Assembly (NCBI GenBank): GCA_031431875.1
Contig: JANPEF010000067.1
Coordinates: 1 to 55,018, forward strand
DNA from: Candidatus Eiseniibacteriota bacterium
GTDB taxonomy: Bacteria; Eisenbacteria; RBG-16-71-46; DASYSL01
DNA: 55,018 bases
Direction: 5' to 3'
In this document: positions 32,279 to 46,010 of the stretch, piece by piece
How the letters are laid out: the number at the start of each line of letters is the position of its first letter
Numbering within the stretch: position 1 is the stretch's first letter
Position numbers and translations under genes: made by a program
Notes under the pieces: generated by a model
Database searches by the model: none
Told to the model about the DNA's origin: nothing
Seen by the model: only the letters and a program-made list of their open reading frames with translations

Positions 32279-32353
32279 TCCTGAGTAGCTCAATGGCAGA
32301 GCAGCCGGCTGTTAACCGGCAGGTTGTAGGTTCGAGTCCTACCTCAGGAGCCA
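32279..32353 (+). tRNA. tRNA-Asn (GTT)
   Basis: Acceptor TCCTGAG/CTCAGGA, D-arm AGCTCAATGGCAGAGC, anticodon stem GCCGG-CTGTTAA-CCGGC, T-loop GGTTCGAGTCC, encoded CCA. Confidence 0.97.
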
Positions 32354-32359
32354 ATATCC

Positions 32360-32400
32360 ATGACCCCCGCGACCCTCTGAGCCGCGGGGGTTCGTCGTTT
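32360..32400 (+). terminator. Terminator-like hairpin after tRNA-Asn (repeat copy 1)
   Basis: CCCCCGCG-loop-CGCGGGGG followed by TTCGTCGTTT. Confidence 0.65.
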
Positions 32401-32480
32401 CGGCGGTCGCCGGCTCCCCGACAACTGCTCGCCGCCCCGTATGCTACCGTCGGGCGCCGCTCATTCCCGGAGGTTCAGCC

Positions 32481-38325: not shown

Positions 38326-38438
38326 GATGCGGAATGTCGCGATCTCCGGCCTCCCGCGCCGGTTCGTAGACTGGGCAACCCGGGGAGCCAACATCCATGA
38401 CCCCCGCGACTCTCTGAGCCGCGGGGGTTCGTCGTTTC
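38326..38438 (+). repeat. att-like junction copy 2: arm + tRNA 3' core GGAGCCA + terminator hairpin
   Basis: GATGCGGAAT...CCGGTTCGTAGACTGGGCAACCCGG-GGAGCCA-ACATCCATGACCCCCGCGACTCTCTGAGCCGCGGGGGTTCGTCGTTTCG; the part after the core is nearly identical to 32347-32402. Confidence 0.85.
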
Positions 38439-38526
38439 GATGGTCCCGTGGGGCATGTTTCCGAGGCAACGTCGCGGCTGCTGGCGGGTCCTCGTGGCTC
38501 ACGGCCCCGAAGCCACCCGGTGGGAG

Positions 38527-40224: not shown

Positions 40225-40337
40225 GATGCGGAATTCGGCACGTTCCCCGGGAAAACTCCGGTTCGTACTCTGGGCAGCCCGGGGAGCCAAGATTCGTGAC
40301 CCCCCGCGACTCTCCAAGCCGCGGGGGTCATCGTTTT
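40225..40337 (+). repeat. att-like junction copy 3: arm + tRNA 3' core GGAGCCA + terminator hairpin
   Basis: GATGCGGAAT...CCGGTTCGTACTCTGGGCAGCCCGG-GGAGCCA-AGATTCGTGACCCCCCGCGACTCTCCAAGCCGCGGGGGTCATCGTTTT; same 45-nt arm spacing as copy 2. Confidence 0.85.
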
Positions 40338-40425
40338 GACGGTCGCAGTTGGCCCGGCTGCCGGGGAACGGTGGTTCGACGCTCCGTGTGGTACCGTCGG
40401 GGTCGCTCTCCCCAAAGGTTCAGCC

Positions 40426-40569
40426 CTGTCCATGGTCCTCGAACGCCTGCGCGATGTCCCCGGCGACCGGTACCGCATCGAGCGCGAGCTGGGGCGCTGC
40501 GGGATGGTCACCGTCTACCTGGCGGAGGATCTGAGACACCGCCGCCTGATCGCGCATAAGGTCATCCAC
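40426..40569 (+). pseudogene. Ser/Thr kinase N-terminal relic (copy 2)
   Basis: LERLRDVPGDRYRIERELGRCGMVTVYLAEDLRHRRLIAHKVIH, degenerate subdomains I-II, truncated. Confidence 0.75.
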
Positions 40570-40613
40570 GCGGAGAGCGCACCTCGCTGGCGCCCCGAAG
40601 ACGGAGACTGCCC

Positions 40614-43600
40614 ATGATCGGCCGCACCCTGGCCCACTATTCGATCACCGCCAAGATCGGCGAGGGCGGGATGGGGGAGGTGTACCGGGCGACGGACACG
40701 CGCCTCAAGCGCGACGTCGCCCTCAAGGTGCTTCCCTCCGCCGTGGCCGCGGACCGCGATCTCCTGGTCCGCTTCCAGCGCGAAGCCGAGTCTGTCGCCG
40801 CCTTGAACCACGCCAACATCGTGACGATCTTCTCCGTGGAAGAGGCGGAGGGCATGCATCTGCTCACCATGGAGCTGGTGGACGGCCAGAGCCTGGATCG
40901 CTCGCTGCCACCCGAGGGATTGTCGCTGGAAGATCTCTTCCGGATCGGGATCCCGCTCGCCGATGCGCTCCAGGCCGCGCACGAGGCGGGGATCGTGCAC
41001 CGGGACTTGAAGCCCGCCAACGTGATGGTCACGAAGCAGGGGCGGGTGAAGGTGTTGGACTTCGGTCTGGCCAAGAGCGCGTTGGCGCCGCCTGCCGACA
41101 CCGATGCGACGCTGGGCATGGCCGCCGCTCCGCTCACCGGAGCAGGCACGGTGTTGGGGACGGTGCCCTACATGGCGCCGGAGCAGTTGCGGGGCGGGCC
41201 GGTGGACGCGCGCACGGACCTGTTCGCGCTGGGCGTCCTGCTCTACGAGCTGTCCACGGGGACGCGCCCGTTCACCGGCGTGAGCTTTCCTGAGATCATG
41301 GCCTCGATCCTGAAGGAGGAGCCACTCCCGGTGACTGAGCGGCGGTCCGATCTTCCCCAGGAGTTCGGGCGGATCGTGCGGCGGTGCTTGGCCAAGGAGC
41401 CGGATCGCCGCTATCGGACAGCGCGCGACGTGCGGAACGATCTCGAAGACCTGCAGCAGATGTTGGAATGGGGGCGGCGGTCGGGCAGCGCGGGGCACGC
41501 TTCGGCGAAACCTGCGACGTCCGAGGCGCAGACCATCATCGTTCCCGGGACTTCCGGCGCGGCAGCGCGGGGAGCCGGTGCCGGTTCGGGCGCCGCGCTG
41601 ACCGCCTATCGCGAGAGCCGCATCCACGAGTGGAGCCAGCCGCGCTACAAGCTGGACCGGGAGTTCGTGGCGCTGACGCTGCTGGTGGACCAGGGCGAGG
41701 AGACGGCGTCGGGCCGGTGGAGCGCCCAGCCCAAGACGTATCAGGACCTCGGGGAGCTGCTGAACCAGGTGGAGGACCCGGCGGTCGTGGTGTTGGGGTC
41801 GCCGGGCTGCGGGAAGAGCACGCTGCTCCGGCGTCTGGAGCTGGAGCTGGCGCAGAAGGGGCTCACCGATCCCGAGCAGCCGGTGACGTTCTTCATCCAG
41901 CTCAACCACTACAAGGGACGGGGACAGGAGCCACCTCCCGATCCCGAGACCTGGCTCGCCGAGCGCTGGTCCGCGCGCCACCCGGACCTGCCGCCTTTCT
42001 CCGATCTCTTGAAGACAGGTCGGATGATCCTGCTTCTGGACGCCTTGAACGAGATGCCGACGCCAAACACGGCGGCGCTTCATGACGCCGTGCTCGGCTG
42101 GAAGGGCTTCCTCGAACTGGTGGTGAGCGATCATCCGGGGACACGCGTGGTCTTCACCTGCCGGGCCCTCGATTACAGCGCCTCGCTCTCCTCCCCGGCC
42201 CTCCGGGTCCCGCAGGTCGTGGTGGAGCCCTTGACCGACGAGCAGGTGGCGCAGTTCCTCGGGAAGCAGAGCCCGGACCAGGGCGCAAGGATCTGGGGCC
42301 AGATCAAGGGAACCCCGCAGCTCGAGCTGTTGCGCTCGCCATACTTCCTGTCGCTCCTCACCGACCAGGTGGAGGCGACGGGGGAGATTCCGCAGGGCCG
42401 CGCAGGTCTGTTCACCGGGTTCGTGCGCCAGGCGCTGCGCCGGGAGGTGGAACGCGGCAACCCACTGTTTTTCCCGAACGGTCTGCTGACCGAACGGGAC
42501 ATCCGCCGGATCACGCAATGGTCGTGGAAGACGGGATGGGACCTGCCCGAGCGCGGGGTGCTGGTGCCGAAGCTTGCGGCGCTGGCGTTCGCGATGCAGT
42601 CGGAGGGGGGCGGTGGGGGCCAGGTGCGGGTGGAGTATGACGAGGCACTGGAACTTCTGAGTCATGAGCAGGACAAGGCGATCCTGAAGGCAGGTCTGGC
42701 GCTGTCGGTGCTGGACGAGGATCCCGGCAAGGACGAGGTGCTCTACGTGCACCAGCTGGTGCAGGAGTACTTCGCGGGCCGGCAGCTGGCGAAAGCGCCG
42801 GATCCGGCGCGGGTCGAGGTGCCCTGGCAAAACCGACAGATCACGCCGCCGCTGAGCACGATCATCAAGACGCTGCCGCCTGGTGAACGCCTGCCACCGC
42901 TGGCGACGACCGGCTGGGAGGAGACCGCGATCCTGGGGGCCGCGATGACGGAGTCCCCGGACGCTTACGTCAGGGATCTCATGGGGACCAACCCGGTGGT
43001 GGCGGGCCGGGCGGCGGGTCAGGTCGAGGTTCGCGAGCGACTGACCGCAGCCACGCTCGACGATCTCCGTCACGCGCTGGTGCGCCGGAGCATCAACCGC
43101 GAGGCCGACTTGAGATCACGGATCGAGGCGGGGCTGGCGCTTGGAGTGCTGGGGGACCCGAGGTTCGAGGCGCGTGAGGGGCCGCACGGCAGATACCTGC
43201 TCCCGCCGATCGTGGTGCTCTCCGCCGGGAGCTACCCCATGGGCGAAGACGAGGTGTACGAGTACCTGGGCCATCGGGTCGAGAACCACATGCCCCGGCA
43301 CGAGGTGGATCTCCAGGGGTTCGGGATCGGTCGGTATCCGGTGACGAATGCCGAGTGGCGATGCTTCATGGACGCCGGCGGATACGAGGAGGAGCGGTGG
43401 TGGGACACGGCGGGCGCCAAGCGGTGGTGGAACGGGGACGGGACGGCGGAAGGGACGCATGCGAACGTGCGGTACTGGCACGGGCAGTTCCGGCAGGACC
43501 GCGAGAAGCTGGAGGAGGCCTGGAGGAAGGGCGAGCTGCGGCAGGACGGCTACGAGCGCTGGAAGAGTCGGCTTGAGATGAGTGGGGATGAGCTCGACGC

Positions 43601-44201
43601 CCATCTGCGGGAACTCTATCCGGGGGGGAAACTGCGGTCGCCGGCCTTCTGGCACGATGGGCGGTTCAACAACCCGTCGCAGCCGGCGGTGGGGGTGAGC
43701 TGGTATGAGGCGCGGGCGTACTGCAACTGGTTGTCGGCGCAGACGGGGGAGGGCTACCGGCTGCCGACGGAGGCGCAGTGGGAGGCGGCGGCGCGGGGGA
43801 AGGAAGGGCGGCAGTACGCGTGGGGCAACCCGTTCGGGGCGCTGTGGGGGAACACGGCCGCGACGAAGGTGGACGGGACGACCCCGGTGGGGGTGTTCGT
43901 GGAGGGGGAGACGCCCGAGGGGGTGAGCGATCTGACGGGGAACGTGGACGAATGGACAGGGAGCCTGTTCGGAGCGGGGCTCGATTTCGAAACGGCGCCG
44001 TTCGCCTATCCGTACGACCCGGCCGATGGACGGGAAGACCAGGAGGCAGGACCGGAGATCCGCCGTGTGTTGCGGGGCGGCGCGTGGAACCTCGATGAAG
44101 TCCATGCGCGCGCGTCCTACCGCTACACGTTTCTCCCGGGCAATCGGAACTACGGCAACGGGTGTCGGGTGGTGGCGCGTTCGTCCCCCATGTCAACCTG
44201 A
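40614..44201 (+). CDS. Ser/Thr kinase - NACHT NTPase - FGE-sulfatase (CLec-fold) multidomain protein
   Basis: GEGGMG, HRDLKPAN, DFG, APE; Walker A GSPGCGKST, Walker B ILLLDALNE, HQLVQEYFA; YPVTN, P..GVSWYEA, RLPTEAQWE, DLTGNVDEW, RGGAW. Confidence 0.92.
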   Translation: MIGRTLAHYSITAKIGEGGMGEVYRATDTRLKRDVALKVLPSAVAADRDLLVRFQREAESVAALNHANIVTIFSVEEAEGMHLLTMELVDGQSLDRSLPPEGLSLEDLFRIGIPLADALQAAHEAGIVHRDLKPANVMVTKQGRVKVLDFGLAKSALAPPADTDATLGMAAAPLTGAGTVLGTVPYMAPEQLRGGPVDARTDLFALGVLLYELSTGTRPFTGVSFPEIMASILKEEPLPVTERRSDLPQEFGRIVRRCLAKEPDRRYRTARDVRNDLEDLQQMLEWGRRSGSAGHASAKPATSEAQTIIVPGTSGAAARGAGAGSGAALTAYRESRIHEWSQPRYKLDREFVALTLLVDQGEETASGRWSAQPKTYQDLGELLNQVEDPAVVVLGSPGCGKSTLLRRLELELAQKGLTDPEQPVTFFIQLNHYKGRGQEPPPDPETWLAERWSARHPDLPPFSDLLKTGRMILLLDALNEMPTPNTAALHDAVLGWKGFLELVVSDHPGTRVVFTCRALDYSASLSSPALRVPQVVVEPLTDEQVAQFLGKQSPDQGARIWGQIKGTPQLELLRSPYFLSLLTDQVEATGEIPQGRAGLFTGFVRQALRREVERGNPLFFPNGLLTERDIRRITQWSWKTGWDLPERGVLVPKLAALAFAMQSEGGGGGQVRVEYDEALELLSHEQDKAILKAGLALSVLDEDPGKDEVLYVHQLVQEYFAGRQLAKAPDPARVEVPWQNRQITPPLSTIIKTLPPGERLPPLATTGWEETAILGAAMTESPDAYVRDLMGTNPVVAGRAAGQVEVRERLTAATLDDLRHALVRRSINREADLRSRIEAGLALGVLGDPRFEAREGPHGRYLLPPIVVLSAGSYPMGEDEVYEYLGHRVENHMPRHEVDLQGFGIGRYPVTNAEWRCFMDAGGYEEERWWDTAGAKRWWNGDGTAEGTHANVRYWHGQFRQDREKLEEAWRKGELRQDGYERWKSRLEMSGDELDAHLRELYPGGKLRSPAFWHDGRFNNPSQPAVGVSWYEARAYCNWLSAQTGEGYRLPTEAQWEAAARGKEGRQYAWGNPFGALWGNTAATKVDGTTPVGVFVEGETPEGVSDLTGNVDEWTGSLFGAGLDFETAPFAYPYDPADGREDQEAGPEIRRVLRGGAWNLDEVHARASYRYTFLPGNRNYGNGCRVVARSSPMST

Positions 44202-44301
44202 GCCGCTGAACGCGACCCCCGGGTCAGCGGCGAAGGAGGCGGCGCGTACGCGCTGCCGACGGGTTGAGCCGCCCGATCTCCCACGTCAACGTCTTCCCTC
44301 C

Positions 44302-44706
44302 CATCGATCCGGCCTTCTCGGGATCCCGGGCGTCAGCAGCGACATGCGGCGACTGCATGTAGCGGCCGCGACGAACGCCGATGCGCGGCTTGCCATCGAG
44401 ATGTTCTGCTACGCCTTCCGCAAGGAGGTGGCCGGCATGATTGCCGCGCTCGATGGCGTCGATCAGATGATCGTCTTCACCGGCGGCATCGGAGAAAACG
44501 ACGCGGTGGCACGTGGCGCGATTTGCGAGGGCTTGTCGTGGATCGGCGTCATCATCGACGAATCCCGGAACCGGTCGGCCAACAATCCCATCAACCATGC
44601 CAGCTCGCGCTGCGCGGTTCACGTGCTTGCCTCGCAGGAAGACGAGCAGATCGTCCGCCACACGTGGGCCCTGGTCTCACGGAAGGCGCCCAGCCAGCCG
44701 TCGTAA
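44302..44706 (+). pseudogene. ackA: Acetate kinase C-terminal fragment
   Basis: SGLLGIPGVSSDMR...ARLAIEMFCY...VFTGGIGEN...EDEQIVR; N-terminal two-thirds absent. Confidence 0.8.
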
Positions 44707-44729
44707 AGCAATTGTCGGCCACTTCTCAA

Positions 44730-46010
44730 TCACCGGGTTCGGCGACTGATCCAGAACACCGCCATGCCGAACACCACGGCCCCGCCAGTCACGGCATAAA
44801 CGACCGGCTCGAACTGGGTCATGAGCGCCAGGCTGATGGCGATTCCCAGCGGCGGCAGCAACGGCAGGCGGCCGACATGCAGGGGCGTGCGGAATAGACG
44901 CTCGCGACCGGGCGCTTTGAAGCGCAGCGCAATCACTGCCGTATGCACGCCGACGAACACCCCCAGGATGGCCAAGGCCGAGACGCTGGCGAGGATCCTC
45001 ACCTCGCCCAGCGGCAGCAGGACGCAGGCTCCGGCATAGAGGGCTAGCGCGGCGACCCAGGGCGTCTTGCGCCGGCTCATCGTCTTGGCCAGGGCTCGCG
45101 GCATGTCGCCATCGCGCGCCATGCCGAACAGAAGGCGACTGATACTCACCAGCGAAATCAGTGCGGTGCTGGCGGTAGCGAACATCGCCGTGACCGCCAG
45201 GGTCTGCCCCAGCCAGGGCGCGACGGCGCGGCCCGCCGTAGTCAAAGGCGAATCGCTTTGCGCCAGCTGGCCGGGGTCCATCACGGCGAAAACGGCCCAG
45301 ACCACCAGCAGATACACGAGCGAGGTGACCGCCACACTCCACAGCAGCGCCCGGGGTACGTCGCGGCGGGGATTCTTCGCTTCTTCCGACAGGTTGGCCA
45401 CGCCCTCGAAACCGATGTAGACGAAAAACACCAGGGCCGTAGCAGCAAAGATGCCGGGTGCGTCGCCGAATGTGGGCAGCGTGATCGCCGCGCCTGCGTC
45501 GCCCCTGAACAACCCCATCACGATCAGCAACAGCAGGCCGCCGACTTCGATGACGATCATGCCAATGCTCACCCAGGTCGACTGCCGCAAACCCACGATG
45601 TTGAGCGCCGTGCACAGGCTGAGCAGTGCAAGGGCTGTCAGGGGCGCAGGGAGTTCCAGGAACACCTTGAGGTAACCGGCGAAGGCCAACGACACCGTGG
45701 CCGAGGTGGCGGCGGCGTTGAGCGCGATGAGAAAGCCCGCCAGGAAAGAAACCAGGGGAGCCTTGGGGAACGCTGCCTTCAGGAACTGGTACTCGGCTCC
45801 CGCCTTGGGCAGCATGGAGACGAGTTCCGCGTAGGACAAAGCGGTGAGGAACGCTGCCGCGCCGGCACAAAGCATGCTCACCCCCAGCGCGGTGCCGGCC
45901 AAGCCAGCGGCCGAGCCGATGATCGTGTAGATCCCGGCTCCCACAATCGTGCCTACGCCATAGAAGATCAGCTGCGTGAGGGAAAGCGCGCGCGCGAGTG
46001 ACTGGGTCAT
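44730..46010 (-). CDS. APC family amino acid permease
   Basis: GTIVGAGI, SYAEL, FFVYIGFE, EEAKNP, SRLLFGMARDG; about 12 TM segments. Confidence 0.9.
   Translation of the reverse strand: MTQSLARALSLTQLIFYGVGTIVGAGIYTIIGSAAGLAGTALGVSMLCAGAAAFLTALSYAELVSMLPKAGAEYQFLKAAFPKAPLVSFLAGFLIALNAAATSATVSLAFAGYLKVFLELPAPLTALALLSLCTALNIVGLRQSTWVSIGMIVIEVGGLLLLIVMGLFRGDAGAAITLPTFGDAPGIFAATALVFFVYIGFEGVANLSEEAKNPRRDVPRALLWSVAVTSLVYLLVVWAVFAVMDPGQLAQSDSPLTTAGRAVAPWLGQTLAVTAMFATASTALISLVSISRLLFGMARDGDMPRALAKTMSRRKTPWVAALALYAGACVLLPLGEVRILASVSALAILGVFVGVHTAVIALRFKAPGRERLFRTPLHVGRLPLLPPLGIAISLALMTQFEPVVYAVTGGAVVFGMAVFWISRRTR

Follow-up and report, generated by a model that had tools for sequence, protein, structure and literature searches.

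A NACHT protein of Candidatus Eiseniibacteriota with a C-lectin tip that is probably the leftover of a diversity-generating retroelement once encoded downstream

Among cellular diversity-generating retroelements (DGRs) those of clade 5D diversify NACHT-CLec targets, which are described as "putative antigen sensors" and whose domains are stated to be uncharacterised so far (Doré 2024, PMC10907252). In Thiohalocapsa PB-PSB1 the targets of DGR 3 and DGR 6 are STAND/NACHT proteins with a C-terminal FGE-type CLec domain that holds the variable repeat (VR) and varies at codon positions 1-2, and each class keeps one complete locus (PMC10907252). A tripartite effector-STAND-sensor group is formed by defence-associated STAND proteins with FGE-sulfatase sensors, which are treated as a structural class, with no mention of DGRs in the passages that deal with them (PMC13581612).

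Leftover targets have also been described. Treponema denticola isolates without RT or template repeat (TR) keep DGR targets, which was read as loss of the DGR core; these are mostly surface lipoproteins, and their VRs differ from the TR of another strain mostly at adenines (PMC4891356). Remote DGR targets are known, and the order TR-(avd)-RT is described as architecture B3 (Wu 2018, PMC5758913). In Bordetella phage BPP-1 the VR is followed by a GC-rich IMH and then, just past the stop codon, by inverted repeats that form a hairpin with a 4-base GRNA loop (Guo 2011, PMC3240598).

The window, i.e., the whole analysed stretch of 55,018 nucleotides (contig JANPEF010000067.1 of assembly GCA_031431875.1), carries an orphaned DGR target, which is an already known kind of locus: the gene works like a DGR target and descends from one, but by the three marks looked for, TR, DGR-type RT, and Avd, none of which was found in the assembly, it does not belong to an active DGR. 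Very probably the tip of the encoded protein is the frozen product of a DGR that once lay directly downstream and was likely deleted. The comparison relies on L210, one of 94 stretches obtained in a degenerate-pattern scan of metagenome contigs; in it the gene for a close orthologue (protein P0128/P0003) is present with its 3' end, and a repeat rich in adenines comes after it. The features of the window are the following:

38384-38445 and 40283-40346 (the latter on the + strand): degenerate copies of a tRNA-Asn 3' end with terminator, upstream of the target gene; putative att role
40614..44201, + strand: target gene of 1195 aa, kinase-NACHT-FGE/C-lectin (ORF call, domain matches, and motifs)
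44061..44187, + strand: VR, by gap-free alignment to the L210 TR
44088-44159, + strand: variable core of the VR, 16 codons facing template adenines in the same alignment
44160..44198, + strand: GC-rich VR end, putative IMH by comparison with Wu 2018 (PMC5758913); likeness to the TR fades by 44194
44202..44231, + strand: hairpin 1 in the predicted fold, 8-bp stem GCCGCTGA/TCAGCGGC and 14-base loop
44238..44257, + strand: hairpin 2, conserved in L210; its 8-bp stem includes one G-T pair, and its loop has 4 bases
44260..44301, no strand: breakpoint; from 44260 on the sequence is no longer like L210, whose TR starts 125 bases further along
44302..44706, + strand: C-terminal acetate kinase fragment without a start, in the place where the TR module would be expected

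The reading frame, codons, and coordinates of the 3' end had been given correctly in a first-pass annotation made from the letters alone: the frame closes with the stop codon 44199-44201, and codons 1150-1195 read RRVLRGGAWNLDEVHARASYRYTFLPGNRNYGNGCRVVARSSPMST. According to domain search the protein consists of a Ser/Thr kinase (residues 9-268), a NACHT NTPase (391-551), and an FGE-type C-lectin, FGE-sulfatase-like domain (865-1187), the last being a PF03781 match; the kinase motifs VALK, HRDLKP, and DFG as well as the NACHT Walker motifs are all intact. The structure predicted for the last 339 residues (pLDDT 86.5) matched FGE-fold structures, and the target sequence matches the Treponema DGR target TvpA (2y3c) with E=1.4e-6. 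An effector-NACHT-sensor layout with intact Walker motifs, the mark of a bacterial NLR-like STAND sensor, is therefore present, and it is the same tripartite layout as in the defence-associated STAND proteins mentioned above. The best 25 of 36 PADLOC matches to the target were confined to its kinase domain. By what is known of this protein family, a ligand bound at the C-lectin tip would cause NACHT oligomerisation and bring the N-terminal kinase into the active state, so that the protein may act as an NLR-like sensor, now with one fixed specificity.

In comparison with PB-PSB1 the likeness lies in the target, i.e., STAND/NACHT with a C-terminal FGE-type CLec domain and codon 1-2 variation, while the window target's effector at the N-terminus, a Ser/Thr kinase, differs from the clade 5D targets there, and the window assembly is without DGR machinery where PB-PSB1 keeps a complete locus for each class. 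The likeness to clade 5D concerns the target layout. Of 8000 candidates scored in the protein search 1390 were relatives; the best 120 of the 1390 all combine NACHT with FGE and have kinase, nucleotide-cyclase, TIR, or other N-termini. In the whole genome about 50 Ser/Thr kinase-domain matches lie on more than 30 contigs. A short frame at 40336-40617 that encodes a degenerate kinase N-terminus overlaps the start of the target gene, and similar DNA occurs elsewhere in the genome and in genus mates.

The key evidence for the origin of the tip comes from L210, where the TR begins about 185 bases past the stop codon of the orthologue, in cis, and the spacer past it is homologous to the spacers of loci that have avd and RT. 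The VR/TR pair of L210 itself differs at 16 of 27 adenines versus 1 of 100 other bases. Against this TR the window VR has mismatches at 12 of 27 adenines versus 10 of 100 other bases (p=1.4e-4), and within the variable core alone at 12 of 27 versus 7 of 45 (p=0.008); 11 of its 12 adenine mismatches fall on codon positions 1-2. With 10 non-adenine differences the L210 TR is not the exact cognate template of the window VR, and these differences equal the 10% divergence just upstream of the VR, where the window and L210 differ at 28 of 270 bases (about 90% nucleotide identity). Eleven unrelated FGE domains from the same scan differ from the L210 TR at 15-21 of 27 adenines and at 37-43 of 100 non-adenines, so the adenine excess is partly generic, but the 90% match at non-adenines is not. 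Among nine close proteins, that of L210 included, at least four residues occur at all 16 codons facing template adenines, at none of 26 scaffold codons, and at 23 of 289 other positions of the domain.

The bias of the mismatches to adenines indicates that a DGR wrote the tip of the window protein, which belongs to its FGE-type C-lectin domain. This agrees with the first-pass annotation, which took the 3' end for a DGR variable region on such a domain; both the mainly adenine mismatch to a TR (a non-cognate one, as with the TR of another strain for the Treponema leftovers) and the codon 1-2 variation in a C-terminal CLec/FGE fold are found here. The second of the origins it had offered, diversification in the donor genome, widened to a donor or ancestor, is borne out by the TR in cis in L210. 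Its argument from codon endings is weak when taken alone: C or T does stand at the third base of 14 of the 16 variable codons, but 11.9 would be expected from the amino acids alone, which largely account for this bias, and it was set aside as DGR evidence.

Past the VR the order of elements follows that of BPP-1, i.e., VR, GC-rich end (the putative IMH), and inverted repeats just past the stop codon; in contrast to the 4-base loop of the phage hairpin, hairpin 1 of the window has a 14-base loop, and the hairpins are two in tandem, either of which might serve homing. The GC-rich end and the hairpin immediately after the stop codon were already recognised in the earlier reading, to which hairpin 2 is an addition. 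The region past the stop folds at z = -3.1 versus shuffles. In L210 the DNA past the stop consists of tight tandem hairpins, and the 3' arm of the window's hairpin 1 pairs there instead in a tight hairpin with a 4-base loop; in the window the 5' arm of this tight first hairpin is altered, and the second hairpin survives. The altered first hairpin would fit a mild decay, though GCCGCTGA is common to other relatives as well.

The likeness to L210 ends shortly after hairpin 2 and is replaced by the acetate kinase fragment, which represents the C-terminal third of the protein and whose best other match in the genome, on contig C82, is 42% identical. Contigs of two sequencing runs that share their study with the likely source of the window, X2 (44006-44853) and X4 (44085-44626), cross the junction with 0 differences, and therefore it is not an assembly error. 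From this comparison the template is taken to have been lost in cis, from the window's own locus. The ancestral locus would have had the order target-hairpins-TR-(avd)-RT, as in the relatives L129 and L021; its DGR would have rewritten the tip through mutagenic retrohoming directed at adenines, the template module would then have been taken away by a deletion immediately beyond hairpin 2, and the allele would have stayed fixed since. Complete loci with a similar TR or target, including L129:1449-2858 and L021:11099-12512, have architecture B3, with an avd opposite in strand to the RT, while the window is without a cassette and its layout is deduced from these relatives. In about 16 distinct related DGR loci avd and RT lie on opposite strands, mostly head to head, and related loci carry two convergent targets around TR, avd, and RT. 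Neither avd nor RT was seen in L210, whose contig ends 193 bases past the locus compared here; the tail of this locus gave no Avd match.

The target gene lies in an island-like region, as its earlier placement in a mobile setting had it. The tRNA-Asn 3' end with terminator (32279-32420) is repeated twice downstream, at 94% and 83%, and each copy is preceded by an element of about 30 bases that occurs about ten times in the genome; the copies look like att-like scars of serial island insertion. Three relatives sit upstream of tRNA-Cys, which together with the tRNA-Asn copies before the gene points to island traffic.

The search for DGR machinery covered the whole genome of the window (3.75 Mb in 166 contigs, 98.45% complete). 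The window itself contains neither TR nor RT, as had been noted before, and in BLAST of the assembly with the VR, the check recommended at that time for an adenine-biased repeat near RT/avd, as well as with the L210 TR module, only the VR itself was returned. In an adenine-blind ungapped scan the best non-self match was 45% mismatched at non-adenines. No Avd was matched in the genome by a single protein or by a 14-sequence profile, and no DGR-type RT was detected. The only RT found in the genome (G000:C90:1642-2256) reaches 399.6 bits with TIGR04416 against a curated cut-off of 300; its identity to a DGR RT is 27%, compared with 39-46% for the DGR-type RTs of the phylum. As a group II intron maturase it was rejected as a trans-acting enzyme. 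A further FGE gene, on contig C18, was considered as a sister target and dismissed as distant and without shared DNA. With no TR, Avd, or DGR RT in the assembly, the tip is likely a frozen leftover and not an actively mutating sensor.

The strongest competing explanation is an active remote target, whose VR would be rewritten in trans by a DGR of the same cell that sits on a plasmid, a prophage, or a contig missed by the assembly. Remote targets have precedents (PMC5758913), the VR end and the hairpins are largely kept, about ten of the 206 genomes examined from the phylum have DGR-type RTs (39-46% identity, long matches), and an assembly in 166 pieces could lack a small contig with a DGR. This explanation is nevertheless improbable, as the assembly is nearly complete, the template was lost from the window's own locus, the window has an altered form of the tight L210 hairpin, the tip does not vary from sample to sample, and the two other genomes that bear the gene, G199 and G207, are also without a TR. 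For a DGR elsewhere in the same genome, the trans action favoured at first reading, the lack of TR, Avd, and DGR-type RT in this genome and the lost template speak against it. Viral contigs gave 0 matches to the VR/TR pattern.

The relation between the tip and its nearest alleles bears on the same question. The VR is unchanged in the contigs of X2 and X4, and in X5, from another study, a contig over 43899-44189 spans the VR with 4 differences anywhere in 291 bases; by comparison, VRs that were diversified separately show differences in 12-22 of the 27 adenine columns. The protein P0001 has 4 residue differences from the window, none of them in the VR. In contrast P0122, which is 92% identical upstream (141 residues with 11 differences), has other residues than the window at 8 of the 16 variable codons; this agrees with the remote-target reading in showing recent rewriting, and it suggests that the last rewriting in the lineage was fairly recent and not ancient. 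No excess variation at adenine-facing positions was seen in contigs of other samples, and since contigs drop rare variants, present rewriting of the window tip is graded as unlikely on these sequences. The present hypermutability that had been proposed for the tip is thus at odds with alleles from other samples, which carry the same or nearly the same tip. Over 41649-44157 the sample X2 also contains a second relative, about 85% identical, which departs from the window between 44088 and 44157, i.e., in the variable core.

The loss of the template is not particular to the window. The whole gene was found in 0 of the 40 relatives first searched and at high identity in two other genomes of 206, of which G207 is a Candidatus Eisenbacteria genome of the same class as the window's. 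In neither G199 nor G207 was a TR found anywhere; both RTs of G207 are group II, and a weak Avd match in G199 (E=4.8e-4), lying inside a 502-aa frame, was not accepted. Among eight close loci with DNA a TR stands at the expected place in L210 only, and in L019, L138, L179, L196, L161, L141, and L213 no TR was found in about 0.7 to 10.8 kb of downstream DNA. The likeness of the TR-less relatives to L210 ends at differing points, and five different orphan tips together with different breakpoints suggest several separate losses; the protein tree gives no order for them, as the window and the TR-bearing P0128 fall in an unresolved fork of a 10-member clade. With this mapped breakpoint and several apparently separate losses, and with a cytoplasmic NLR-like protein in place of mostly surface lipoproteins, the window family differs from the Treponema leftovers (PMC4891356).

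The template-less alleles appear to be frozen: L019, L138, and L179 differ at 0 of 27 adenine columns with 1.6-3.5% divergence upstream, and L141 and L213 differ at 1 of 27 columns but at 9 of 100 other bases. Cluster 4 has 32 members, of which 15 were listed and 14 compared; the VR was covered in 13 of the 14, in which the core is uniform but for one V/I change in three of them and one scaffold change.

It is less likely still that the tip, though frozen in the cell, is refreshed from outside, either swapped by recombination with community relatives or rewritten during the passage of a DGR-bearing island. Such exchange would agree with the departure of the X2 relative across the variable core and with the VR scaffold of the window, which has 5 non-adenine differences from L196 and 7 from L019 but 11 from L210, its upstream DNA being nonetheless nearer to L210; but a direct recombinant was not found, differing ancestral templates can give the same scaffold pattern, and L141 and L213 held one tip through 9 non-adenine changes. 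Least probable of all is that no DGR was involved and that ordinary diversifying selection acted on FGE ligand-binding loops, with C/T endings coming from amino-acid choice, for although these endings are mostly due to amino acids and in unrelated FGE domains, too, mismatches to the TR are more frequent at adenines, this reading is largely refuted by the near-perfect TR/VR pair of the close orthologue and has against it the match of the window to the non-coding L210 template at 90 of 100 non-adenines and the homology of the spacer after it to those of avd + RT loci.

Under the preferred explanation, a frozen product of a deleted DGR, the gene is otherwise unremarkable and adds another orphan DGR target to an NLR-like protein class that is already published; of further interest is only that the template was lost repeatedly while the allele was kept. 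A tentative and rather doubtful extension is that in this lineage the DGR serves as a transient specificity generator, whose module would be lost just past the hairpins after a useful tip has arisen, and that the fixed allele, kept by purifying selection, would then spread with tRNA-linked islands and act as an inherited memory of what is recognised. The idea is consistent with at least five lineages that differ in tip and in breakpoint, and if it were true the fixed tips could be used directly to probe for the ligands of bacterial NLR sensors made by DGRs.

The family comprises several intact proteins with 75-85% identity, whose differences lie mainly in 16 known codons that are fixed across strains. 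This makes it a natural set of variants with which to study the ligands of C-lectin sensors written by DGRs and a possible role of these sensors in phage defence, both of which were left untested by Doré et al. (PMC10907252). Because the template persists in one of nine close loci with DNA, scans that require an RT miss most of its members. In the literature no paper joining "diversity-generating retroelement" and "Eisenbacteria" was found, the search having covered papers without their supplements, which may list relatives.

Two further loci of the phylum were observed. A complete-looking DGR with two long targets, avd, RT, and TR is present in the same class (L220:5643-15461, G091:C12); it is a different element, at 75% to the L210 TR. 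In the same-genus genome G004 a collapsed remnant (L218, on G004:C209, near 44459-44700) fuses a kinase start, a piece of the FGE domain containing a stop, and the spacer found ahead of the TR in L210.
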